A stretch of DNA of 43,892 nucleotides, from positions 1 to 43,892 of IMG/VR virus record IMGVR_UViG_3300005573_000145, one strand, 5' to 3'. Source of the stretch: a virus. Its lineage: Duplodnaviria > Caudoviricetes. This document shows positions 1-43,771 of this stretch, piece by piece (the first letter of the stretch is position 1; each line of letters begins with the position of its first letter). Both the position numbers and the translations under genes were made by a program. The notes below the pieces were generated by a model. It was not told where the DNA came from and ran no database searches. It was given only the letters and a program-made list of their open reading frames with translations.

Positions 1-121
1 CCTGCCACTCCATTAGTAGAAGTCATATACCAAGTGTCTACATTAAATTCTATTGCTCCTGTTTCTTCTGTCGATAATAATGTTCCACTTGTGAATTTTA
101 GAGGAGCGGTGCCTGCTGAAG
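1..121. repeat. Terminal direct repeat, left copy (assembly overlap of a circular contig)
   Basis: 1..121 is identical to 43772..43892, and an ORF reads straight through the join. Confidence 0.97.
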
Positions 122-875
122 CTGTCCCAGCTTTTAAGTGTAATGCTGCTGTTGGTGGTATGGCTCCTATTCCAACATTTCCTACATTATTTATTACTCC
201 CAAACCTACACCTGAACTATTCCTCCATCTTAGTATATCAGCAGTTTGTCCGTTAGCGGCTTGTAATATCATATTAGGCATTTCTATTTTGATATTTCCT
301 ACGTAAATCAAAGCTGGAGTTTCCCAAGCTGCTCCTCCTACTCTTAAAGTTGCATATCCGCTACTATATCCTATGGCTACAGCATAATCGGAATATCTAT
401 TGATATGAAAGGCTGTGTTAACGCTGTCTATTCCTCCAGTTCCAGGCGTAAACTTTATCATTCTGTTATTACTTGTTGCCTCTAACCATAATTCTGGGCT
501 ACTATCTGATATATGTAACTTTGCTCCCGGAGTTGTTGTTCCTATTCCTACACGATTATTTATCGTATCTACGTTAAATACATTAGTTGTTCCGTCTGCT
601 CTGTTTATTTGCACTGCTGTTGTACTATTTATAGAAGGATAGATAACCCCTGTTTTTACTTTTCCAAAGGTTCCTATACCGTCAGTAGCTAAATTTTGAA
701 TACCTAAATTAACATCGCTAAATGCTCCTATATAAGGAACAAAAGTATTATTTGTTTGTGTCATAGTATAATAATTAGATTTCTCAGAATTCCAAATAGG
801 GTCGGTTTCTACTATACTTCCACCTACTTCGTAATAATCTAATTTCCCAGTTAAGGGATTGAATTTATAAGACAT
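1..875 (-). CDS. Fibre-like virion protein, 344 aa, 5' part; continues across the origin through 43771..43612
   Basis: Manual translation from ATG at 875: MSYKFNPLTGKLDYYEVG...RVGIGTTTPGAKLHI...GNVGIGAIPPTAALHL...; VGIG repeats typical of trimeric fibres; in frame with the track ORF 43612..43797. Confidence 0.85.
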   Translation of the reverse strand, partial: MSYKFNPLTGKLDYYEVGGSIVETDPIWNSEKSNYYTMTQTNNTFVPYIGAFSDVNLGIQNLATDGIGTFGKVKTGVIYPSINSTTAVQINRADGTTNVFNVDTINNRVGIGTTTPGAKLHISDSSPELWLEATSNNRMIKFTPGTGGIDSVNTAFHINRYSDYAVAIGYSSGYATLRVGGAAWETPALIYVGNIKIEMPNMILQAANGQTADILRWRNSSGVGLGVINNVGNVGIGAIPPTAALHLKAGTASAGTAPLKFTSGTLLSTEETGAIEFNVDTWYMTSTNGVA

Positions 876-876
876 T

Positions 877-1140
877 TTATGTTCTGGTTATTGTCTTTAC
901 ATTACCATCTTCATAGGTTATGCTTAATGTAGCAACAACAGTCCCAGAAGAGCCACCTTGTTTATAAACAATTTGTGTAGGGTTTCCCCCAGAATAAGTT
1001 AATTCTATATAATCATATCCCTCTGGAACAAGAGAATCAGCAGTTATTACAGGAGCATTTGCTCCGATAGTTTCTCCTTTATCATTAACTAAAACAAATG
1101 GATATGCCTTTGCATTTGAGCTCGGTAAAATATATGCCAT
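877..1140 (-). CDS. Small beta-rich virion protein of the fibre cassette
   Basis: YDYIELTYSGGNPTQIVYKQGGSSGTVVATLSITY resembles small structural proteins of uncultured phages; BRE-TATA ~22 nt upstream. Confidence 0.7.
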   Translation of the reverse strand: MAYILPSSNAKAYPFVLVNDKGETIGANAPVITADSLVPEGYDYIELTYSGGNPTQIVYKQGGSSGTVVATLSITYEDGNVKTITRT

Positions 1141-1225: not shown

Positions 1226-1378
1226 ATGAAAATAAGAAAAGTTCAAGATAAAAGAATCTTAGCGAGGGTCTATTACAAACATGTGGTAACAATACCAAAA
1301 GAAATAGCTTTAAAATTTATAAACAAACAACTTAAATGTTACACAGAAAATAATAAAATTATAATAGAGCCTCTATAA
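1226..1378 (+). CDS. AbrB/MazE/SpoVT-family DNA-binding protein, 50 aa (not in ORF track)
   Basis: MKIRKVQDKRILARVYYKHVVTIPKEIALKFINKQLKCYTENNKIIIEPL shows the VTIPKEI...KIIIEP signature; GAAAATATTTAAA promoter at ~1192-1204. Confidence 0.75.
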   Translation: MKIRKVQDKRILARVYYKHVVTIPKEIALKFINKQLKCYTENNKIIIEPL

Positions 1379-3317
1379 ATTTGTCGATATCATAATAAGC
1401 AGAGCCAAGAGGTTTTTGAGGAACATAAGGCTCCATTAATTTAATCTTGTTTTCATTCATAACAACAACTTTAGGAGGGTTTATTTTTCTAAAACATAAA
1501 TCATAGAGTGGAATAAAAGAATCATGAGGACCTTCTTTTTCTCCCCATACAAAATGAACTTTGTCTTGTAATTCTTCTGGAAGCATTTTAGCAATTCTTA
1601 CTTCTATTGCTCTTTTTAAAAAATCATTTTTTGGCTCATCAAATCTTATAAGCAAGTCAATATCGTGAGGTTTATGTTCTTGAGTTACACTAGAACCAAT
1701 TAAGGAAATACAATCTTTGATTACTGTAAAGTCTTGTAGATTTTCTAAGAATTTCAAATCTCTCCATTCAGCCATAATTACAGATTCCCCAGAAACAATT
1801 CTATACAACTCTCGTGAATGAGGCTTCATTTTTTCTGGCTTAAATTCGTGTTTCATTTTGCCTTCTTTTACCCTTTTAACTATTTCTTGATAAATTAACT
1901 TTGCTAGATTAATTATCGTCTCTTTTGAAAATTTTATTCCTTTTCCTTCTGTTTCAATATAAGTAGAATACCATCCATTTACTATTCTCCAATCATCAGC
2001 TAATTGGGCATTATTTACTTTGGTTGGGTCATAAGTTTCTATTTTTTGAATTAGTTTTATTACCTCTTTGCTGGGAAGTTTTACTTCAATTTTGCCTTTC
2101 TTTTTTCTACCCCAAATCCAAATTGGTTGTAATCCAAATCCTGTAGTTTCTCCTCCTCCTACATCTCCACTTCCTGTTTCCTCTAAGTCTTCTGACAAAA
2201 ATTTTGTAGATTCAACAAAAGTTTGCACTCCTTTTGGCAATTCTATTGGCTTTGGTTCTTCAAAAGTAGAAAGAATGTCAAACTCATAAGCATAAAACTC
2301 ATTTGCTCCATTCCACCATTTTATTCTTTCTTCATCTGTTATTTTATGTTCTTGCTTTAGCATTCCAAATTCTTTAAGAGAAATCTTTTTTGGCTTTTTT
2401 AATCTAAGAATTCCATAAGCATATTTATCGTCCATATAAAATAATGGTTTTCCAACCATATTTGGATATTCTTTTTCTTTAATTATTAGCTTCTTTTCTC
2501 CTTCTCTTATTAATCTAGCATGAGGTTCTGGAAGATATATTCCTTCATCTAATTTAACATCATCTCTTAGTTCGTTAGCATTAAATCTCATACCATCATA
2601 TGAAAGATAGATATTTGTTTCAGTGTCTCCTTTAATAGAATCCCAAAATTTTTTTATTTCAACTAAAGCTTCTGATTGATTTGGATAAGTCCTGCCTGCT
2701 TGTATTATTATTAAATTGTTTGGCTGAAATTTTTTGGCAAGCAATAAAGTTTTATCAATAGATAAATGTCCTCTAATTTGCTTTCCAAACCACATAGTTC
2801 CATCAGCAATTATAGTATCGGCATTTTTAAAATATTTAATAGATTTTTCTGGAATTGCTTCCATATCTTCTGCATAAACAACATTATTTATTCTATAGCC
2901 ATAAGTTGGAAATTTCTTTCCGAGAGTAGGATGATATTCATAATGAATAACTCTAAAAGGAGTTATATTATAATCACCTATCTCAATTTCTTCATAAGGC
3001 TTTAAATTAACTATATTTAAATTTTTGAATTCTTTTGAAAATCTAAAAACATTTACTCCTTCTGGAACATATACATTAATCTTTTTCCCTATCCATTTGT
3101 CTAAATCTTCTAATCCTCCTATTGCATCTTTATGAGCATGAGTAAGAAATACTGAATCAATTTCATCTGGATTAATTTCTAAATCTTTTACTTGCTCTAA
3201 AAACATAGGAGTGATATCTATTAAAAATCCATCAATTAAGACTGAAGAATTACTCCTTTTCTCCTTTTCCCTTATTATTGGTTTCGTTGGACCCGTTCCC
3301 AGAAATAATATCTGCAT
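1359..3317 (-). CDS. Multi-domain protein: MBL-fold hydrolase, ASCH/PUA-like domain, MCP-like peptide, helical domain, Pol-beta-like nucleotidyltransferase, ligase-like C-terminal stub
   Basis: FLGTG...THAHKDAIGGL...YAED...ADGT...GHLS (PhnP/RNase Z-like MBL); GIYLPEPHARLIREGEKKLII...YAYEF (ASCH-like); LIGSS...DIDLLI (GS/DxD NTase); GGAGG SD. Confidence 0.8.
   Translation of the reverse strand: MQILFLGTGPTKPIIREKEKRSNSSVLIDGFLIDITPMFLEQVKDLEINPDEIDSVFLTHAHKDAIGGLEDLDKWIGKKINVYVPEGVNVFRFSKEFKNLNIVNLKPYEEIEIGDYNITPFRVIHYEYHPTLGKKFPTYGYRINNVVYAEDMEAIPEKSIKYFKNADTIIADGTMWFGKQIRGHLSIDKTLLLAKKFQPNNLIIIQAGRTYPNQSEALVEIKKFWDSIKGDTETNIYLSYDGMRFNANELRDDVKLDEGIYLPEPHARLIREGEKKLIIKEKEYPNMVGKPLFYMDDKYAYGILRLKKPKKISLKEFGMLKQEHKITDEERIKWWNGANEFYAYEFDILSTFEEPKPIELPKGVQTFVESTKFLSEDLEETGSGDVGGGETTGFGLQPIWIWGRKKKGKIEVKLPSKEVIKLIQKIETYDPTKVNNAQLADDWRIVNGWYSTYIETEGKGIKFSKETIINLAKLIYQEIVKRVKEGKMKHEFKPEKMKPHSRELYRIVSGESVIMAEWRDLKFLENLQDFTVIKDCISLIGSSVTQEHKPHDIDLLIRFDEPKNDFLKRAIEVRIAKMLPEELQDKVHFVWGEKEGPHDSFIPLYDLCFRKINPPKVVVMNENKIKLMEPYVPQKPLGSAYYDIDKFIEALL
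1375..1384. repeat. 10-bp direct repeat ATAAATTTGT at one fibre-cassette boundary
   Basis: Same 10-mer at 40395..40404; both lie over the codons for (D/N)KFI in the same codon phase of the flanking enzyme genes. Confidence 0.55.
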
Positions 3318-4572
3318 TTAACCCTCCCAAGCCTTCTGATTTAATTGCATAGGATTTAATTTCAGTTGGGGTTAATACTCCTTTTTCTATATAACTAATT
3401 AATCTTTTGGCTTTATCATTAATTTCTTCAGCTCCAATATCTCCCCATTTTATTTCAGCTGGTTTAAATTTATTAACCTGACATATACGATTGATTATAT
3501 ATTTTTTAATAGTAGATAATGTTCTATATACTATATCATTTAAAGTAAATTCTAAAAATACCTGCTGATTGTTTAATGTTGCTCTATTTGTTGCTTCTCC
3601 ACTACCAGTAGCAAAGGCTGCAGGCATTCCAAGAGAAGCTGTTTCATTTATTCTAAGATATTCTAAAGTATTTTGCACAATTTCTGACTGCTTAACTTCT
3701 ATTGGCTCTACTTTATACCAATAAGGAGCAGCCGTGCCTCTATCATACCTTATTTTTGTAACTAAATCAAGAGCTTCTTTCATAGATTGAGGAGTAGGAT
3801 GATGCTTTTCATCTCCAACATATGCAATTAAAGGATATAATCCTCTTGAATCAATAGAAACAGATTGAGCTTCTTCTATATTATGTTTGTATAGAATAGA
3901 TTTATAAGCTGGTTCAATTAATCCTAATCCATAAAATCTATCACCATAAGTATAAAGTTTAAAATGGCATATTCTTTCAGGAAGTAAAAATATCTTATCA
4001 GAACCAAGATTAATGTCATAACCTTTAGGAACTGGGTCTGACTTTCCTTCAGTAGAATAACCAAATGGAACAGTTAAAACATAGCCAATGGGCTTGCCAT
4101 ATTTATCAAGAACAATATTTCCTGTGCTATCCTTTGCATAATCCATTTTCTTTGGGTCAATTAACACTAAATCAACAATCCTATCCATTCTTTTATTATA
4201 AACTAATTCAATATATGCATTACCATAAATCATTTGATACTTATAAATCGCTTCTAAAATTTCATCAAAAGTAACATCTTCTCCTACTTTTCCAATAGAA
4301 TCAAAGAACTTTTTAAATTCCTCTTTTCCTTCTCCGATTATTTCGTACCCAGCAGATAATATCATTTGAGTTGCTTTATTTATAGAATTAAAGCAAATAG
4401 GGTCATTAATATAACACAACTCAAGTTCTTCAAGGCTTACTCTTGGAACTTTAGGAGTAGTTTTAGTAGTCTTTGGAGAGGGAATTGGCTCTTTAGATTC
4501 TTCTGCAAGAATATATGAAACTTGCTTTTCTTCTTTCTTAAAAAGATTTTTTACAAAGTCAAATATAGCCAT
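3250..4572 (-). CDS. Portal protein
   Basis: YGNAYIELV, LIDPKKM, ERICHFK, YGLGLIEPA, LGMP...NRAT, GVLTPTEI motifs; downstream of TerL; ATG 4572 preferred over GTG 4593. Confidence 0.9.
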   Translation of the reverse strand: MAIFDFVKNLFKKEEKQVSYILAEESKEPIPSPKTTKTTPKVPRVSLEELELCYINDPICFNSINKATQMILSAGYEIIGEGKEEFKKFFDSIGKVGEDVTFDEILEAIYKYQMIYGNAYIELVYNKRMDRIVDLVLIDPKKMDYAKDSTGNIVLDKYGKPIGYVLTVPFGYSTEGKSDPVPKGYDINLGSDKIFLLPERICHFKLYTYGDRFYGLGLIEPAYKSILYKHNIEEAQSVSIDSRGLYPLIAYVGDEKHHPTPQSMKEALDLVTKIRYDRGTAAPYWYKVEPIEVKQSEIVQNTLEYLRINETASLGMPAAFATGSGEATNRATLNNQQVFLEFTLNDIVYRTLSTIKKYIINRICQVNKFKPAEIKWGDIGAEEINDKAKRLISYIEKGVLTPTEIKSYAIKSEGLGGLNADIISGNGSNETNNKGKGEKE

Positions 4573-4620
4573 TTTTAAAGGGACGAAGCTCACCTTTACA
4601 AGTTTTATAAAGATATGCTT

Positions 4621-11027: not shown

Positions 11028-11207
11028 ATGAATAAAGAGCTTACAAAAGAGCATAAACTTAAACTACTTGAACTATACTTTAAAGATAAAACTATAGTAA
11101 AGGCAGTAGCAGACACTTTAAACGAAAAGGAATTAAACAGGCTTATTTTTAACAATCTTGATGAAATTTTAATAAATGCTTTAAATCTTGATAAAGAGGA
11201 GGAATAA
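11028..11207 (+). CDS. Hypothetical protein, 59 aa (not in ORF track)
   Basis: MNKELTKEHKLKLLELYF...; ends just before the Ku start. Confidence 0.55.
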   Translation: MNKELTKEHKLKLLELYFKDKTIVKAVADTLNEKELNRLIFNNLDEILINALNLDKEEE

Positions 11208-11208
11208 A

Positions 11209-11970
11209 ATGGAATTAAGAATTGGATTAGTTAAAATACCTATAATGTTAGTAAACGTTTATAATAATTCATACAATTATGAGGCACTGCATCAATTCTC
11301 TAAATGCTGTAAAGAAAGAGTAAATTATTTAAAGGTTTGTAGTAATTGCGAAAAAAAACTAACTAATGATGAAATTTTAAAAGGAACAGATAAAGAGCAT
11401 ATTTTATCAGATAAGCAAGAGGAAAAACTTAAAGAGGCACTTGAAAATTCTATTATAGAAGTAATTAGTATTAAAGAATTAGAAAAAGAAACCTTATTTA
11501 ATTTAATGCCATTCATTTTAAAATCTCAAATAATACTGCCGAGTTTAAGAAAGGGATTTAAAAAAAGAGATATAAAAACTTTCTATTCTTTTGTAAATTC
11601 GCTTAAAGAGTTAAATAAATATTGTATAGCAAAACTAACAACAAGAGGAAAAGAGCATCTTATTATCTTATTGAACTATAAAAATGACTTTATGAGTTTT
11701 GAAATTCCGTTCAGTAGATATTACAATAATGATGAGATAAGCAGACTTAAACAAGCAGTAAAATTTGAATCGACTAATTTAAACATAGATGAATATAAAG
11801 AACAAGCAAAGAAGTTTATAAATGAATTTAAGAAAGATGCAGAATTAGATGAGATAACAGAGGAAAAAAAGACATTACTTAAATTGTTTTTAGAAAATAA
11901 AAATGAGGAAAAAGAGATAGAAAAAGAAGAGGATAATTGCCCTTTTTCTATCTCTAATTTAAAAAAATGA
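11209..11970 (+). CDS. ku: Ku DNA end-binding protein (prokaryotic NHEJ type)
   Basis: LRIGLVKIPIML, LHQF...RVNYLKVCSNC...DEILKG, CIAKLTTRGKEHLIIL; ATG 11209 after GAGGAGG. Confidence 0.85.
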   Translation: MELRIGLVKIPIMLVNVYNNSYNYEALHQFSKCCKERVNYLKVCSNCEKKLTNDEILKGTDKEHILSDKQEEKLKEALENSIIEVISIKELEKETLFNLMPFILKSQIILPSLRKGFKKRDIKTFYSFVNSLKELNKYCIAKLTTRGKEHLIILLNYKNDFMSFEIPFSRYYNNDEISRLKQAVKFESTNLNIDEYKEQAKKFINEFKKDAELDEITEEKKTLLKLFLENKNEEKEIEKEEDNCPFSISNLKK

Positions 11971-36668: not shown

Positions 36669-37748
36669 TTAGGCATCAGCAACGTCAATAAATACTATTG
36701 CATCTGGATAAATGACTTTTACATCGTATTCACAGACTAAGCTAATCCTAACCTGGTCTCTTTCATTATATTCCCAGCTATTCAATTCGGGCTGTCTGCC
36801 CCATACGACTGCACATGCATGCTTTGGCTTACAAAGTATGCATCTAGTCATATCAACAGCAACATTTGCTGTTTCTGGGTCAGGTCCTTCGCTTCCTGCA
36901 GAAACTTGTTCAACGTTGTTTGTTACAACAACTCTTATTCCTAAGTATTGTCCAATTTCTCCATTCTGGACAACTACATCAGAACCATATTCTGCAGCAT
37001 TGGTGAATTGACTATCTTTCCTAAGGACTTCTTCTTGAGCTGGTCCTATGAACAAAACATATGGGTCATCTGGTGTATTCATCCATGGGTTTCCTGTAAC
37101 ATGTCCAGCTACAGAACCATATCCTCCACCTGCACCATTATTTGTTCTGTATTCTTTGTTCTTCGATTTAAGGAGCTTAGCTGCTTTAGCAATTAGGTCT
37201 GTAGTTAATACATCACCTGATGCTAGAGTAGAATCACTTGTAGCATCTCCTCCAAAGAGTATTTGAGCTCCTGTTGCACTTGAACTTGCTCCAATTGCAT
37301 CACCCATTGCTACAGCAATAGCTTTGTCTAGTCTTTCACCAATAGCATAAGAAAGTTCTTCTTTTGCTATTTCTAACAAATTAAGTGCATTAGTTCTTAA
37401 TGCATACTTTGTTAGAGCAAAACCAGCCATAACAGGTGATGGAGTAGCAATAATGCTCTTAAGATTATCTAATGTTGTCCATGAGATATCTGCAGAAGTT
37501 CTTTCTGTAGTATCAAATGATACTCCAGTTGAACCTTTGTATGTAGATTTAACTGGAATTACAACATCATGTATTCCCTGAGGAGCATTCATTACTCTAA
37601 CGAAATTGGCAAAGAATAGCTGAGATTTAGCTGCATCAATTATCTCTTTAAGATACTCTATGGGCTGCAAACCGTACTTTGTTCCTACTGTAGTACCTTG
37701 AACATCGCTTGAGCCAGTTTGTGCCAGTTCTTTTATTGTGTATTTCAT
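36669..37748 (-). CDS. Major capsid protein (HK97 fold)
   Basis: ELSYAIGERLD, YVLFIGP, NGEIGQYLGIRVVVTN, YDVKVIYPDAIV; follows protease/scaffold. Confidence 0.92.
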   Translation of the reverse strand: MKYTIKELAQTGSSDVQGTTVGTKYGLQPIEYLKEIIDAAKSQLFFANFVRVMNAPQGIHDVVIPVKSTYKGSTGVSFDTTERTSADISWTTLDNLKSIIATPSPVMAGFALTKYALRTNALNLLEIAKEELSYAIGERLDKAIAVAMGDAIGASSSATGAQILFGGDATSDSTLASGDVLTTDLIAKAAKLLKSKNKEYRTNNGAGGGYGSVAGHVTGNPWMNTPDDPYVLFIGPAQEEVLRKDSQFTNAAEYGSDVVVQNGEIGQYLGIRVVVTNNVEQVSAGSEGPDPETANVAVDMTRCILCKPKHACAVVWGRQPELNSWEYNERDQVRISLVCEYDVKVIYPDAIVFIDVADA

Positions 37749-37749
37749 T

Positions 37750-38805
37750 TTATGCAAAGCTAGACCTCAAGAATTCAGCCATAGCAAGAGTCCCAGGTTT
37801 ATGAAGCTTGTCATTAGTAGCAAATACAGAAACTTTAGCTTGTTTATCCTGAGAAAGTTCTTGCACAGATTTAGCATCTGGTGCATTTAACCTTTCAGAA
37901 AGTTCCTGAATCTTCTGTTCCATTTCCTTTATCTTTTTTTCTGAAGATTCTTCCTCATAAGGATAAGGATATTTCTTTTTTCTTCTAAGGATATTTGTAA
38001 GCTGTTCTATTTTGCTTACTATTTCCTCTTCAGAAAGCTGTTCCAATTCTTCAGATTCTTTGCTTTTTTCTTTATAAGCCTTAGCAATGTCTTTGAAGCT
38101 CATTTTTGGATATTTTTTTCTCATACTAGCGACAAAATCTGTCCAATCGCTCATAGAAACAATATCCAAAAGTTCTTTTTCAGACATTTCTTCCTCTGAA
38201 GATTTTTTATCCTTACTAGCCATTTCTTCAGTAACTTCCTCTTCTTCTTCCTCAGTTGTTTCTTCCTCTGCTACTTCTGTTTCTTCTTCCTCCAGAACTC
38301 CTTTCTTTTTTGATTCTTGTGGCATTTTTTTAACCTCCTGCTTAGATTTAATTTGAGCTTGAGATAAATTTATATAAGCTTTTTTAACTGCTGGATTTGT
38401 AACTATTGAAAAATTTTCAAATACAAAATCTTTTAACTCTCCTTTGTCTTCAGTTCCTCTAATTCTTGGAGAAATTCCAAATTTTGCCTTTGCTTTTAAT
38501 AATTTAACAATAATATTTTCATCATATAATTCTAAATCTCCAACTAAATTATTTCCTTCTAATCTTGGATTTCTAACCCATCCAACCCAATCATGAACGC
38601 TTAAAGGTTTGTCTGCATGGTCTAATATTATAGAAATAGCATCTTTATCATTCCAATTTGTATTTTCAAAAGCTTTTTTGATTTCCTCTGCTGAATAATG
38701 AATATCATTCCACTTTCCAGGAGCCATTAATATTTTGTTTTTGATAACAGTTGGTATAGTAACAACATCTTGTTCAGAAAGTTCGGCACAAATAGGGTTT
38801 ACCAT
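37750..38805 (-). CDS. Prohead protease fused to scaffolding domain
   Basis: LMAPGKW, ILDH, VGWV, GISP, FSIVTNPAV, then an acidic coiled coil. Confidence 0.85.
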   Translation of the reverse strand: MVNPICAELSEQDVVTIPTVIKNKILMAPGKWNDIHYSAEEIKKAFENTNWNDKDAISIILDHADKPLSVHDWVGWVRNPRLEGNNLVGDLELYDENIIVKLLKAKAKFGISPRIRGTEDKGELKDFVFENFSIVTNPAVKKAYINLSQAQIKSKQEVKKMPQESKKKGVLEEEETEVAEEETTEEEEEEVTEEMASKDKKSSEEEMSEKELLDIVSMSDWTDFVASMRKKYPKMSFKDIAKAYKEKSKESEELEQLSEEEIVSKIEQLTNILRRKKKYPYPYEEESSEKKIKEMEQKIQELSERLNAPDAKSVQELSQDKQAKVSVFATNDKLHKPGTLAMAEFLRSSFA

Positions 38806-38854: not shown

Positions 38855-40408
38855 TTATTCATTCAACTTGTCAAAAAGAATTATATGCCTATTTCCAATA
38901 TGAGCTATATGCCATGAGTACTTTCCAGTAATGTCAATTAGCTCATCAGGAAGGTCTTTAGAATACTCTAGTCCTTCTTTTTTTGCTTCTTCTAATGGTC
39001 TTTTATCAATTTTTCCTTTATCAGATTTGTATTCAATATGAATAACATGGTCATCTACTTTGTGGATTGTATATTTTCCTTTTGAAATTATAGTAAATAT
39101 TCCTGGATTATGCTTTGTTGCCCCTATTCCTCCTTTTTTTGTAATTCCTTGAAAAGTAAGCCATTCAGTAGGTTGTGGAAGTTTTATAGTAGAACGAATA
39201 TTGTTCCTTTTAGTTTCTATTGGAAGCCTATCTTCTGTGCTTCTTCCAAATAATGTTATTCCTTCTAAATGGTCATCCACTTTATGCCTAATATCATAAT
39301 GTAATGTTTTTCCTCTTGTATGAACTTGCATAACATAATCATTCCATTTTCCAATCATATTTTTAAAGCTTTCTTGCATTCTTTGTGGAAAATTAAGCAC
39401 TTCTATTTCTTTTCCTTCACCTCTTGATTTTGATTCAGCTAATTCTTCACTAATAATTATTTCATGTCCATCTAATTCTGTATGAATAATAGATGCTCCA
39501 ATAGAAGTAACTAAATCTTCTAATCTATCAATAGTAGACAAATTTTCATTAGTTTTGTCTACAACTCTAGGTTTATGTATAGAATAATGAACTCCTTGTT
39601 TTCCTTCGTGTCTCCATACTTCTTCTACTAATATTTGTATTCTATCTCCTGTATTAAAAATTTTATCTGTATTAAATGTATGACCAAGAATTAAGAAACC
39701 ATTTTTAATATAGTCTTTGTCTAGAAATTTTTTATCTGCTTTTATTCCAACTAAGTAATTATAAAGGTTTCTCTTTTTAGGCACTCTTTCTATAACCTCT
39801 ACAACTAAAGGACTTAATTTTCTAAATTTTTTCCAAGAAGAGTTTTCTCCAAAAAAATATGGAGCATCTAAATCTTTAACTACTGCTCCTTCTGAGCCTT
39901 CTAAATCAGAAGCCCAATTTATTGCCTTTTTTAATTCCTCAATATCTTTGCTAACTATTTTTCTCTCGATTTCTTTTATTCTATCATTAAAATTAAGCTT
40001 TTTAAGATATTCTATTCTTTCTTTAAGAGAAAGGCTATCTATAGGCTTATTAAAATAAACTATATCCCAAACATGCAATTTTATATTTGAATCATCTACT
40101 TTCTTTCCAGATTTTACTGCTCCCGTATATTTCATTAAAGCATTTCTTCCAAGAGTATTGCCTTTTTCATCATATGGAACTAATTCACCATCTATAATAA
40201 AATCTTCTTTAGAAAGTTTTTTAATCTCTTCTATAAGTGTAGGAAAAGCAAAAGTTAAGTCTTTTTTTTGTTCTGAAAATATTTTGACTTCATCGTCCTT
40301 TTTATGAATAGTAGCATGAAAACCATTCATTTTTTTCTCTACAGAGAGATTTCCCTCAGGAATATTAGACAAAATTATTCCATAATCACTTTCAATAAAT
40401 TTGTTCAT
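38855..40408 (-). CDS. ATP-dependent DNA ligase (adenylation and OB domains) fused to a LigD-type 3'-phosphoesterase domain
   Basis: EKKMNG, IIDGELV, VWDIVY, EGAVVK, WKKFRK; YVMQVH...LHYDIR phosphoesterase motif. Confidence 0.88.
   Translation of the reverse strand: MNKFIESDYGIILSNIPEGNLSVEKKMNGFHATIHKKDDEVKIFSEQKKDLTFAFPTLIEEIKKLSKEDFIIDGELVPYDEKGNTLGRNALMKYTGAVKSGKKVDDSNIKLHVWDIVYFNKPIDSLSLKERIEYLKKLNFNDRIKEIERKIVSKDIEELKKAINWASDLEGSEGAVVKDLDAPYFFGENSSWKKFRKLSPLVVEVIERVPKKRNLYNYLVGIKADKKFLDKDYIKNGFLILGHTFNTDKIFNTGDRIQILVEEVWRHEGKQGVHYSIHKPRVVDKTNENLSTIDRLEDLVTSIGASIIHTELDGHEIIISEELAESKSRGEGKEIEVLNFPQRMQESFKNMIGKWNDYVMQVHTRGKTLHYDIRHKVDDHLEGITLFGRSTEDRLPIETKRNNIRSTIKLPQPTEWLTFQGITKKGGIGATKHNPGIFTIISKGKYTIHKVDDHVIHIEYKSDKGKIDKRPLEEAKKEGLEYSKDLPDELIDITGKYSWHIAHIGNRHIILFDKLNE
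40395..40404. repeat. 10-bp direct repeat ATAAATTTGT at the other fibre-cassette boundary
   Basis: Matches 1375..1384. Confidence 0.55.
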
Positions 40409-40539: not shown

Positions 40540-42621
40540 TTATGAAACAGAACCATAATTATATTCTCTCCCACTACTTGTACCTCCTGTATCCATAACT
40601 ACTGGCTGTGCCTGAAATACATAATCCATATTTGTAAGTGTAGGGTTACCTCCAGCAACCGAAATTGTCATATCATCTACATATCCAGAATAAGTAGTTC
40701 CTCCGTAAGCCCAAGCTTCTATCTCAACCACTCCTGCCTCTGTTGGTGTAAATTGTATCTGTAACTCTTCCCAAGTATCTGCAGCCGCAGTCATAGTGGC
40801 AGTTACATCATCATCAACTCCTGCTATTTGTTTACCTCTACAGACTAATTTCATTGTTAAACCAGTATTGCTTCTTCTAAACCACGCCTTTACTGTAACC
40901 AGATTATTGGCTGTGCAGGCAACTTTGGCTATCTTTAAATCTAAAGGATAATTAGATGCCCTGCTTGATGAAGTTGGGGATAATTTCCAAGCAATTCCTG
41001 AAGCAGTATGTCTAACCGTTGTTTGAGAATTAATTATTCCGCCATCTGTGAATATCCAATGATTATTTGTAGTTTGGTCATGGTTTTGAGAGAAAATTCT
41101 TGAATTAGCAAAATTAGTATAGCCCCCAACCTCTGTTGATTCGGCAATTAAGGCGTTATAAAGATAATTCATTTGTGTATCATTACGAATCCCTCCTGTC
41201 CCATTTCCTGAAGTTGATAAAGATTTAATGGTATTGTTGTTGCTGCTGGAGTAGTAGACTCCATAGTTATTATTATTAGCATTTGAAAGGGTGGTAATAG
41301 TATTATTGCTGCTGCTGGTGTAGTAGACCCCATAGGGATTATTATTAGCATTTAAAAGAGTAGTAATAGTGTTGTAGTTACTAGTGGCGTAATAAACCCC
41401 AGCGGAACTATTATTATTAGCATTTAAAAGAGTAGTAATAGTGTTGTAGTTACTATTGTTGTAATAAACCCCAGAGGTAGTATTGTTATTGGCATTTGAA
41501 AGAGTAGTAATAGTGTTGTTATTACTATTGTTGTTATAGCCAATTCCATAGTTATAACGGCAAACATTAAGATAATTGAAGGTAATATAAGATTTACCAT
41601 TTAAATAAAGTCCATATCCATTTCCATTCAACCCATCAAAAAATGTTTCTCCATCTTGAACCGTAGTAGAAGTATTCCAGCCACCTTGAAATTCTATATT
41701 GTTTCCCAAAGTTCCATTATCTTGAACTTCTTGAACGGCTGCTCCACTGGCACCAGTTATACCCGTTTTTATTGTTTCTCTTTTATAAGTGGTTACAGTT
41801 TCAGTTGTTCCAGAATATCCTCTACCAGCATTGGCTAGAGTATTTGTATCAGCATCCAGTAAAACTGTAGTCCCATTTATACTTTGTATTCCATACCAAC
41901 CTTCTGTTCCTCCTTGCTCCGCTGAATTTTTAGAAATCAAACTCTGAAGATTAAGCCCATCAGTTGTGCAAGCGATAAAATCATCTAATAGAAGAGTTAT
42001 TATTCCTGGGTCAGTATTTGCATAAATAGCAATTGACTGGATAGAAGACCCCAAATTTCCTCCTCCATCTTTTGTAAGTGTCAAAGGCAAGTATCTATTC
42101 GTTGAAGGAATAGCTGGTATCCAAAAAGTATCTACAATAGTATCTCCTGTCGTGTCAGAACAAAGAACCACCTTAAAAACAGTTGCCGAAGCGATTGCCG
42201 CATCGTTTCGTATCCAGAAACTAATTTTCTGATAACTGGACAAATCTAAAGCGGCTGGAAGGGTTTTATAAGCAACTTTGCCAGTGATAAAGGAGGAGGC
42301 AATGGCAAGGGATGCGGCATAACTACCTTCTTTCATTGTTGTTGAGGTAGTAGCAGTGACATTAGTTGAAGCGGTCCAAGCGGTTTCGCACATTTCTATA
42401 TTGGCAGTTTGAGCAGTAGCCAAAGTAACCGTCTTTGATAAATTTGTCCAAGTAGCATTTCCAATTGATGTCGGAGGTGGACTTTTAGCAATTCTGATAA
42501 CATCGCCAGGAGCTATTCTGGAAGCAGTTGCTCCATTAGTTATAGTCTTCCAAGCAGTAGCCCAACTTAATCCGTCATTTGAATCGTTACCGTTTTCGTA
42601 ATCTAAATAAAATATTGTCAT
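40540..42621 (-). CDS. Beta-helix / carbohydrate-binding spike-like protein
   Basis: YLDYENGNDSNDGLSWATAWKTI...PGDVIRI beta-helix start; Asn-ladder repeats; C-terminal CBM-like domain. Confidence 0.8.
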   Translation of the reverse strand: MTIFYLDYENGNDSNDGLSWATAWKTITNGATASRIAPGDVIRIAKSPPPTSIGNATWTNLSKTVTLATAQTANIEMCETAWTASTNVTATTSTTMKEGSYAASLAIASSFITGKVAYKTLPAALDLSSYQKISFWIRNDAAIASATVFKVVLCSDTTGDTIVDTFWIPAIPSTNRYLPLTLTKDGGGNLGSSIQSIAIYANTDPGIITLLLDDFIACTTDGLNLQSLISKNSAEQGGTEGWYGIQSINGTTVLLDADTNTLANAGRGYSGTTETVTTYKRETIKTGITGASGAAVQEVQDNGTLGNNIEFQGGWNTSTTVQDGETFFDGLNGNGYGLYLNGKSYITFNYLNVCRYNYGIGYNNNSNNNTITTLSNANNNTTSGVYYNNSNYNTITTLLNANNNSSAGVYYATSNYNTITTLLNANNNPYGVYYTSSSNNTITTLSNANNNNYGVYYSSSNNNTIKSLSTSGNGTGGIRNDTQMNYLYNALIAESTEVGGYTNFANSRIFSQNHDQTTNNHWIFTDGGIINSQTTVRHTASGIAWKLSPTSSSRASNYPLDLKIAKVACTANNLVTVKAWFRRSNTGLTMKLVCRGKQIAGVDDDVTATMTAAADTWEELQIQFTPTEAGVVEIEAWAYGGTTYSGYVDDMTISVAGGNPTLTNMDYVFQAQPVVMDTGGTSSGREYNYGSVS
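41230..41545 (-). repeat. Tandem 69-72-bp coding repeats (NTITTLxNANNNxxGVYY)
   Basis: 43-bp identical blocks at 41341 and 41413, plus diverged copies. Confidence 0.85.
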
Positions 42622-42626
42622 ATTGG

Positions 42627-42887
42627 TTACTCCGTAAATTTTATTTTTTCCTCTAAAACTTTTATTTTTTCTTTTAATTCATCTATTGTTGGCTCTATCA
42701 AAGGCGGTTCATTTAAAACAAAACAGTATTTCTGTGTTTCAGCGATAATTTCATTTTCTGTTGGTTTATCCTGAAATTTTAAAATAATACATTCTTCTTC
42801 TTGCCCATTAATAATAGAAACTTTTACTCGATATTTCCCTGCTATATCCTGCCAAATTTCTATTATTTTATTAAATTGCCAATCCAT
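42627..42887 (-). CDS. Hypothetical protein (possible spike chaperone)
   Basis: GGAGGAG SD; directly upstream of the spike gene. Confidence 0.6.
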   Translation of the reverse strand: MDWQFNKIIEIWQDIAGKYRVKVSIINGQEEECIILKFQDKPTENEIIAETQKYCFVLNEPPLIEPTIDELKEKIKVLEEKIKFTE

Positions 42888-42902: not shown

Positions 42903-43322
42903 TTATGTTTTATATCCAAAAATATCAACAGCTACTTTTGTAACTGTACTTACCGAATCGACATTTATTCTCACATAATCTCCAGCATTAACAGTGGTTG
43001 TCCAAGTGGTTAATGAAGTATCTTGATTTTTCTGTTGATTTGATAAGGTAGGTTTTTCAGAGCCTGCGATTGTATCAGCAACTGTAGGAGGAAAATTGTC
43101 ATAAGTACTTTTCCAAACATCAACTACAATGGAACCCGATTGGTCGGCAGTAATTTCCCATCCCGTAATTATCATATTGTAAGGAACTCTTACCCACGAT
43201 TTTGCTCCTATTGTAATTACTGACCCTCCACCATCTATGTCAAAGTGAAGTTGGGCGGTTTTTACATCGCCTGTTTCATAATAGTCTAAATTCCCTATTA
43301 GCGGATTAAATTTATAAGGCAT
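42903..43322 (-). CDS. Short fibre/decoration protein
   Basis: N-terminal YKFNPLIGNLDYYE then an IDGGGSVIT...ADQSGSIVVDVWK...PPT beta-sandwich. Confidence 0.7.
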   Translation of the reverse strand: MPYKFNPLIGNLDYYETGDVKTAQLHFDIDGGGSVITIGAKSWVRVPYNMIITGWEITADQSGSIVVDVWKSTYDNFPPTVADTIAGSEKPTLSNQQKNQDTSLTTWTTTVNAGDYVRINVDSVSTVTKVAVDIFGYKT

Positions 43323-43340
43323 TTTACATCAATAAATATT

Positions 43341-43592
43341 TTATTTAATTTCTTTCATTATTTCATCTAACACTTCTTTTGCACTTGTAAGTCTACTTAA
43401 TTCATCTTGTAGTATTTGCTTACTCTTATTGTATTCATCATCTATTGTTGCTAACCTTGATTGCACATTCGCTATTGCTATTTTTAATGCGTCGTATTCT
43501 GCTTTTAGTCCCTTCTCATCTACCACTTTCTCTACTTTTGTTATTAATTTATACTGTTCACCTTCCTTAACTACATTATATATTGTATCCAT
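43341..43592 (-). CDS. Coiled-coil hypothetical protein
   Basis: AAAGGAGGT SD; heptad repeat. Confidence 0.65.
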   Translation of the reverse strand: MDTIYNVVKEGEQYKLITKVEKVVDEKGLKAEYDALKIAIANVQSRLATIDDEYNKSKQILQDELSRLTSAKEVLDEIMKEIK

Positions 43593-43611: not shown

Positions 43612-43771
43612 TTAATTTAATAATAACCAATTTGATGAATCTGTAGTTCCATCTGCTATATATACTTTATGGTTTGCTGTATCAACATAAATATCTCCTA
43701 CTCTAACTGGAGTTGTAGTTGGGGCACTAGTTCCTTTTGTTACTCCGGGTATTCCTTGCCTTTTTGTTGAA
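43612..43771 (-). CDS. 3' part of the origin-spanning 344-aa fibre protein
   Basis: In frame with 875..1; GTSAPTTTP..VGDIYVDT..KVYI..W motif. Confidence 0.8.

Follow-up and report, generated by a model that had tools for sequence, protein, structure and literature searches.

The window analysed here, the whole 43,892-nucleotide stretch of the virus record IMGVR_UViG_3300005573_000145, encodes what is probably a two-gene ATP-dependent DNA ligase. The tail of one gene product, a multi-enzyme protein of 652 residues, is predicted to complete in trans the catalytic core of a second protein of 517 residues, which is encoded on the far side of a 4.7-kb cassette of other genes. Relatives show that the two proteins derive from one ancestral polyprotein, and that its fission is older than this virus and took place more than once. 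The record, which has a GC content of 29% and a terminal repeat of 121 bp, appears to be a complete circular genome of a tailed virus. Because of the terminal repeat, the cassette is taken to span the origin of the record.

The two genes and the divided ligase domain

The genes, the orphan ligase piece and a 10-bp repeat that occurs in both genes are as follows.

1359..3317, minus strand: first gene, 652 residues; metallo-beta-lactamase (MBL), ASCH, helical and nucleotidyltransferase (NTase) domains plus an N-terminal ligase piece
1362..1454, minus strand: ligase piece orphaned at the end of the first protein (residues 622-652), with a strand, the PQKP motif (1410-1421) and the helix DIDKFIEALL
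38855..40408, minus strand: second gene, 517 residues; leader of about 20 residues, adenylation core, OB domain, linker and LigD-type 3'-phosphoesterase (residues 355-515)
1375..1384, unstranded: repeat copy 1, ATAAATTTGT, within the conserved coding sequence of the tail, overlapping the stop of an AbrB-like open reading frame (ORF)
40395..40404, unstranded: repeat copy 2, ATAAATTTGT, in the ligase leader, codons 2-5

The 652-residue ORF starts with a PhnP-like metallo-beta-lactamase (residues 1-249; PF12706, E 4e-22; fold match 6b9v, Z 26.1), followed by an ASCH domain (residues 256-376), which was recognised by fold (5guq, Z 11.7, root mean square deviation (rmsd) 3.2, 119 residues aligned) and has a Pfam ASCH match below cut-off. 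A helical domain (residues ~423-510) and a small nucleotidyltransferase-like domain (residues ~522-612; weak PF01909 (NTP_transf_2) match, E 8e-4, below cut-off) come next. The C terminus reads ...PYVPQKPLGSAYYDIDKFIEALL before the stop codon. In a family profile, the PQKP motif of this tail aligns with the KPMLA of the archaeal ligases 4eq5 and 9dfa, and the last 31 residues of the protein are therefore read as the start of a ligase adenylation domain. The alignment with solved ligases agrees with a first-pass annotation of the DNA, in which PQKP had been proposed as the PMLA-type strand that the ligase ORF lacks. Many relatives (P0102, P0103, P0106, P0108-P0110, P0112 and others) have a Dam-type methylase (PF02086) in the first protein, in place of the MBL or in addition to it.

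The 517-residue ORF, with the N terminus MNKFIESDYGII..., contains a ligase adenylation domain (PF01068, E 3e-27, 96 bits against a cut-off of 26). The ligase residues K26 (catalytic, 40331-40333), D73, E75, D115, E173, K178 and K194 are present, and so are motif I (KxNG/KxDG) and motifs III, IIIa, IV and V. An OB domain follows, with residues 7-301 of the model aligned to residues 232-547 of 3gde (Z 22.1, 262 aligned). The C-terminal domain has a 3'-phosphoesterase fold (3p4h, Z 14.2, rmsd 2.0, 115 aligned; 3n9b, Z 13.2) and no Pfam match. A weak RNA_ligase match in Pfam (E 1e-4) is below cut-off. No primase-type polymerase domain was matched in either protein by Pfam or by fold, where the lists are dominated by the other domains. 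The PMLA-type strand and helix do not share a chain with the catalytic lysine, as the motif ends the 652-residue protein; only the two proteins jointly hold both elements, and on this sequence evidence they are predicted to function as an ATP-dependent DNA ligase.

A single ancestral gene, which the first-pass annotation had proposed to be an MBL-ASCH-NTase-ligase-phosphoesterase polyprotein, is borne out by the relatives. Both halves lie in one chain in 39 of the 41 longer relatives and are collinear across the break (for example 612/619 in P0002), so that the contiguous homologues it had suggested looking for do exist and the two proteins are not always encoded separately. A scan of viral contigs with the 652-residue protein alone returned no relative, and alignments were required to find relatives among contigs. 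In the fused relatives, the match to the first protein extends to about residue 651 and that to the second begins at about residue 22. Among 34 fused proteins with both motifs (four duplicate upstream matches excluded), the PxKP lysine and the catalytic lysine lie 27 residues apart in 22, 26-29 in 29 and 31-33 in five, and a spacing of 34 occurs in none. When the entire first protein is joined to the second from residue 17, the spacing is 27, and the natural break is for this reason placed after EALL and not at the repeat. According to the sequence, the cut thus falls inside the adenylation domain, in the loop that leads from the PxKP helix to the strand preceding the catalytic lysine.

The arrangement is not an assembly artefact. 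A second assembly, L033, is identical to the window over 16,917 bp, both junctions included, and contigs of the hot-spring runs X2 and X3 each span both junctions unbroken, where L033 and the X2 and X3 contigs may derive from the source sample of the window and so are not independent populations.

Recurrence of the break among relatives

Of 43 non-redundant loci in which both halves pass the identity thresholds applied, 30 encode one fused protein. The break follows the helix in 10 (this virus being one) and precedes the PxKP strand in 3. At four of the ten, the ORFs abut and there is no cassette between them. In the remaining split relatives the gaps are 0.3, 0.3, 3.1, 3.7 and 5.9 kb, and they are filled with genes unrelated to the cassette of the window, mostly of fibre, spike or Ig-like kind. 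The suggestion of the first-pass annotation that the cassette split the gene is not supported, as relatives end the first protein at the same place without any cassette.

The end of the first protein is well preserved. From 34 first-protein ends, of which 3 are duplicates and 3 lack the pattern, 28 distinct ones keep PxKP and the helix and stop 16-25 residues past the lysine, 13 of them at exactly 17 residues, as in the window. The KF(I/L)E helix is also found in split relatives. The residues after the repeat, EALL and the stop, match the tails and stop position of the relatives; they are ancestral and do not come from the cassette. Standalone ligases 50-73% identical to that of the window are numerous, and they have unrelated leaders of 17 to more than 100 residues, none with PxKP in searches of near-length proteins. 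A helical leader domain of 82-90 residues, found in many split ligases, occurs as a separate ORF directly upstream of the ligase in L046 (1509-1757) and L052 (790-1038); it may have a role in head targeting.

A quick tree was made of 112 ligase cores, of which 64 rows are fused, 44 split and 4 unlabelled. In it, the ligase of the window falls in a clade with 98% support that contains 22 split rows and one fused row, and the six ligases nearest to it are all split. The tree requires at least 13 changes between the fused and split states, of which 3 are forced by strong branches, and a single clade for all split rows is rejected (approximately unbiased test, p-AU 8e-39). The number of independent fission origins is what we infer from these changes. 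The lone fused member of the clade, L036/L037, is nested, has a spacing of 29 and is split at another boundary, and for these reasons it is best read as a re-fusion.

Breaks at other positions were also observed. In L071 (3-1057) the adenylation domain is cut at another loop, after ...RKIVQG; the gap contains a fibre-like ORF, and the second half carries a new coiled-coil leader. In L089 (7520-12114) a fused gene is broken within the ligase core by a 175-residue ORF, which from its motifs we take to be of HNH type, and the second half has a new leader; either a mobile intron or a third natural break may explain this arrangement. Fibre-like cassettes or plain breaks occur at other domain boundaries of the polyprotein in L012 (6397-9050), L100 (6334-14130) and L006, and the entire polyprotein gene is for this reason regarded as a hotspot of fission and insertion. 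A degenerate ligase-like domain stands in tandem before the intact ligase domain in L013 (9449-12196), P0012, P0023 and P0029.

Fit of the two pieces and alternative explanations

Selection acts on both pieces. Fifteen first proteins from the clade of the window, taken from the 21 rows of alignment A4, have a mean identity of 72% for the tail, 82% for the segment PQKP..YYD and 73% for the NTase, compared with 44% for the linker before the tail and 48% for the ASCH domain. Across the 44 split cores, D73, D115, R131 and K178 are invariant, E173 is kept in 43, and E75 and K194 in 42, with motif I excluded from the count as it was used to pick the rows; the catalytic residues are retained in cores as low as ~40% identity.

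When the 652-residue protein is modelled alone, residues 619-641 are of low confidence (predicted local distance difference test (pLDDT) <50), and the tail makes no confident contact with its own chain. The tail (residues 622-652) and the ligase core are predicted to bind each other with a score of 0.89, the best of three controls scoring 0.00; for comparison, 116 of 157 solved complexes and 2 of 215 mismatched pairs attained the mark used. The docking runs agree in at least 95% of contacts, with a partner pLDDT of at least 68. The predicted contacts include core residues 73, 115, 176-177 and 184-198, and the predicted interface begins at residue 622, just past the invariant M620.

The account that we favour, and consider likely, is that the tail of the first protein completes the core of the second in trans. 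It begins with the single head-module polyprotein seen in the fused relatives. Fission at the loop after the PxKP helix took place more than once and before this virus, and variable fibre- or adhesin-like genes would later have been inserted into the gap or exchanged in it. The 31-residue tail is predicted to dock on the catalytic core to give a working two-chain enzyme. Both proteins would be made late with the head genes and packaged together, and their position suggests that co-packaging would keep the two pieces together. The kit may then heal and seal DNA ends after entry, perhaps with the viral Ku. Among the three options given in the first-pass annotation, a split ligase complemented in trans is the one that best suits the splits at the same loop, the conserved tail and the predicted docking.

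Several observations weigh against this account. The evidence for trans-complementation consists of sequence and predicted structure. Halves of a known fold can pass a docking test from their likeness to solved ligases, so that the prediction shows fit and not binding, and it may reflect that resemblance rather than binding by this copy. For most of the 44 split rows the protein alone is known; five tree labels were corrected by hand and four rows left without one; some database proteins may be truncated by contig ends; and several split loci are near-copies (L072/L082, L067/L095). Packaging is deduced from gene position. The window leader, with ILSN, scores -2.2 bits as a site for the putative head protease described below, which is below background, and the strongest peaks of the site motif, at 476 in the first protein and 66 in the ligase, lie inside folded domains. 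The probability of a 10-bp in-phase match by chance, about 1%, also leaves room for some shared history of the two copies of the repeat.

The ligase core might instead work alone, with the new leader helix replacing the lost one and the tail kept for another job, such as folding against the NTase or serving as a packaging signal. The model of the 517-residue protein is confident over the core (mean pLDDT 86.5) and draws leader residues 2-15 as a helix, and the end of the leader, ILSNI-PEGNLSV, loosely resembles the helix and loop of the fused form. However, the leader itself is of low confidence (pLDDT 41 and 60 in the first two blocks), the leaders of relatives are unrelated and none has PxKP, and the tail retains exactly the ligase motif, with 82% identity over PQKP..YYD, and has no confident contact in its own chain. 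We therefore regard this alternative as unlikely. Loss of ligase activity since the split, with the genes persisting for their MBL, ASCH, NTase and phosphoesterase, is the least credible of the alternatives: the relative L043 (377 residues) has lost part of the C-terminal region of the ligase gene, but the catalytic residues are kept in 42-44 of the 44 split cores and the tail is as conserved as the NTase. The halves could also be rejoined into a single chain by intron splicing, ribosomal bypass or protein splicing. ORFs abut or overlap at four split loci, and the HNH-type ORF within the break of L089 is as in mobile introns. Against rejoining, neither half matches an intein family, the gaps vary in length between -27 bp and 5.9 kb and have unrelated contents, the leaders open from their own start codon and often carry the conserved 90-residue domain or a coiled coil, and the gap of the window carries a gene on the opposite strand. 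It is given little credence, slightly less than the insertion scar considered next.

The remaining two alternatives concern the repeat, on which the first-pass annotation had based the break. Its positions, the shared codon phase, the ORF ends and the 1,160-residue in-frame join were all given correctly. The two copies cannot be extended on either side and lie 4,751 bp apart on the circle, and the AbrB-like gene (1226-1378) does stop inside copy 1, as had been stated. A third copy of ATAAATTTGT, absent from that annotation, is present in another phase in a fibre gene (42438-42447). The genome contains 8,051 pairs of identical 10-mers, and an in-phase match of at least 10 bases was found in 60 of 6,000 draws of random 60- and 69-nucleotide coding windows (P ~0.01); the match, which the first-pass annotation had called weak alone, is weakly above chance and was chosen after the fact. 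The leader of the window aligns with the start of the leader of relative P0051 with a score of 17, which 709 of 20,000 shuffles reached, and with the tail of the first protein in the KFIE register with a score of 18. When a profile of the 90-residue leader domain was used, no trace of this domain turned up upstream of the ligase gene, and the helical domain in the first protein gave no clear match to it. Copy 2 may have arisen by chance, as a remnant of a longer leader or as a local copy of the tail.

If an intact fused gene had received the cassette at the 10-mer, which was duplicated in the process, the repeat would be a microhomology scar and the split recent and specific to this virus. In favour are a repeat that is exact and in phase at both ends, the re-fusion in the clade, which makes a fuse-then-split course possible, and the Ku encoded by the virus. 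This reading, which builds on the insertion scar proposed in the first-pass annotation, nevertheless fits poorly and is considered very unlikely: EALL and the stop after copy 1 match the relatives, so that the first gene was not cut at the repeat and the repeat is not a target duplication; the repeat-to-repeat join has a spacing of 34, seven residues more than the usual fused form; the nearest ligases are split; and the junctions of the gap loci L045, L067 and L095 share only 7 bases. These three are the gap loci covered by the junction test; at abutting ORFs the match is the overlap itself. Excision, as a switch between fibre-bearing and fused-enzyme genomes, had also been suggested, and it appears less likely again than rejoining. 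Deletion between the copies is in frame, and the spacings of 31-33 in some fused relatives show that a longer loop is tolerated; the product would plausibly be a re-fused enzyme with seven extra residues. In contrast, none of the 34 fused proteins has the restored spacing, and no repeat was found at any other tested split locus. No recombinase was recognised, as noted before: the tyrosine integrase (PF00589) and serine resolvase (PF00239) families gave 0 matches in the genome, where controls were positive in 14 and 13 of 14 genomes and a host recombinase is possible, and a Pfam scan of 73 ORFs found no recombinase at a meaningful score. No excision junction was seen among the contigs of X2 and X3, which are unbranched at both copies when the two junctions are considered one at a time, although rare excision would escape contigs, which drop rare variants. 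The depth of the cassette (38-56 and 22-32 in the two runs) is like that of the flanks (47-50 and 30). The repeat has no needed part in the split and is probably incidental.

Gene neighbourhood, packaging and relation to known systems

The order on the minus strand is terminase, a 280-residue ORF, portal, the 652-residue enzyme gene, the 4.7-kb cassette, the 517-residue ligase gene, a probable protease-scaffold gene and capsid. The neighbouring head genes are as follows.

3250..4593, minus strand: portal gene, directly upstream of the 652-residue gene; PF06074, E 3e-12
37750..38805, minus strand: probable prohead protease-scaffold, immediately downstream of the ligase gene; contains repeated (E/N)-(L/M)-S motifs
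36669..37757, minus strand: major capsid protein; PF05065, E 2e-7; PHROG major head matches; short N-terminal leader ending TIKELA

The label of the product of 37750..38805 comes from its position between ligase and capsid and from the conserved order in relatives, and the protein has no protease match in Pfam or PHROG. In the relatives L015 (11734-14106) and L047 (1835-4138), protease-scaffold and capsid form a single ORF. A bacterial-type scan of the region upstream of the ligase gene gave no promoter or terminator signal stronger than in shuffled sequence. The genome also contains tail genes and, by Pfam, Ku, RNase HII and a Hjc-type resolvase, a combination that suggests an archaeal host; contigs of relatives are binned as Methanosarcinales, Thermoplasmata and Aminicenantes, in bins that may be mixed. 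The Ku homologue (11188-11970; PF02735, E 4e-14) is remote from the ligase and has early-type genes around it.

In the window and most loci, the multi-enzyme gene sits among head genes in the order portal, enzymes, probable protease and capsid, and from this position both proteins are probably packaged together in the head. Capsid N termini and the ends of protease domains share a hydrophobic-x-(E/N)-(L/M/F)-(A/S) motif across the family, and a site model was built on 36 capsid and 12 protease-end sites. At 5 bits or more, the motif occurs just before the core in 10 of 44 split and 1 of 64 fused proteins (p 0.005). It peaks in the linker before the tail, near residue 624, in 26 of 59 relatives, with further peaks at other linkers. 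These counts are inflated by near-copies. These sites lend weak support to trimming of linkers and leaders by the head protease. More tentatively, and in our estimate possible rather than probable, the protease would free the 31-residue peptide and strip the leader, so that the ligase would assemble only inside the particle. Such a ligase would be assembly-gated and intein-free, it would have evolved repeatedly at three loops, and the break would serve as a slot for exchangeable fibre genes.

The cassette contains the following ORFs.

1226..1378, plus strand: AbrB/MazE-like ORF, 50 residues, overlapping the end of the first gene by 20 bp; PF04014 (MazE_antitoxin), E 0.043, below cut-off
877..1140, minus strand: 87-residue ORF; phrog_26903, unknown function, E 5e-14
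1..875 and 43612-43771, minus strand: 344-residue ORF across the origin, called fibre-like from its composition
43341..43592, minus strand: 83-residue coiled-coil-like ORF; weak Pfam matches only
42903..43322, minus strand: 139-residue ORF like a virion structural protein; phrog_10330, E 6e-19
42627..42887, minus strand: 86-residue ORF; no family in Pfam or PHROG
40540..42621, minus strand: 693-residue ORF like a beta-helix fibre or adhesin; weak NosD and Beta_helix matches; internal tandem repeats

The AbrB/MazE-like ORF, with which the cassette starts next to the 652-residue gene, had no match in the other fetched loci except the identical assembly. Within the tandem repeats of the 693-residue gene (41100-41550), the X2 and X3 contigs break and skip 145-256 bases, hinting at variation in repeat number or allele, or at related viruses. 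The 344- and 139-residue proteins share an 18-residue start that is 78% identical and contains a YKFNPL motif (822-875; 43269-43322). Similar starts near the head module occur in L109, L117-L119, L127, L133 and L140, and they are a possible capsid-anchoring peptide.

Like the archaeal and eukaryotic ATP-dependent DNA ligases (3gde, 4eq5, 9dfa, 1x9n), the predicted enzyme has adenylation and OB domains, motifs I-V and a PMLA-type strand and helix before the catalytic lysine. In the solved enzymes, however, that strand and the lysine are on one polypeptide, and the ligase protein of the window lacks their N-terminal DNA-binding domain. With bacterial LigD and the archaeal end-joining set (3p4h, 3n9b; ligase 1vs0) it has in common a ligase with a 3'-phosphoesterase and a Ku elsewhere in the genome. 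It differs from them in its MBL, ASCH and small NTase, in the lack of a detected primase-type polymerase, in its location in a viral head module and in the split of the ligase domain. Fractured phage genes are known in which an enzyme gene is in two parts with foreign genes between them and the products are joined by split inteins. The organisation is similar here, but no intein family matches either half, the first ORF ends 17 residues past PxKP and the second reaches the catalytic motif at residue 24, and the pieces would associate without splicing. Phage PR1 has a heterodimeric DNA ligase (Protein Data Bank code 9hu3), likewise formed from two gene products, which is known to us from its listing and an alignment. 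Chain A (residues 62-333) aligns continuously with residues 4-288 of the window model, the entire core and OB domain, and the PR1 enzyme, which we take to be NAD-dependent and of T5 type, is therefore cut outside the adenylation domain. A literature search found no paper on it.

In the bacterial Pnkp-Hen1 and Rnl-Hen1 RNA repair systems (PMC4411300; Protein Data Bank code 4drf), the ligase also needs a piece of the product of a neighbouring gene in trans. There Hen1-N, an unrelated domain, locks an insertion domain open, whereas in the window the proposed partner consists of the N-terminal strand and helix that the ligase itself has lost. Polyvalent and MuF-fused phage proteins are multi-enzyme proteins encoded among head genes and proposed to be packaged, proteolytically processed and injected (PMC5512222, PMC9503650). 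No MuF or embedded peptidase domain was detected here, and the accessible parts of those two papers describe neither this domain set nor a split ligase; those of PMC4889955 contain nothing on split ligases. No natural ATP-dependent ligase split in the adenylation domain was found in the literature, in a search with thin coverage of subscription journals and without supplements. Two-chain ligases are known; apparently undescribed is an intein-free and repeatedly evolved break inside the ATP-dependent adenylation domain.

For annotation, standalone ligases of this family appear complete to Pfam and yet miss their first element. If the proposed complementation is true, a separate gene, with no intein involved, can provide a piece that lines the adenylation pocket region of a DNA ligase, and this has happened several times in nature. 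The pair would offer a direct test of the role of the PMLA strand and also a peptide-switchable ligase, ready for use and possibly heat-stable, that could serve in conditional ligation or proximity assays. Viral polyproteins may be able to break inside domains when the pieces are packaged together, which would open the break to variable fibre genes.

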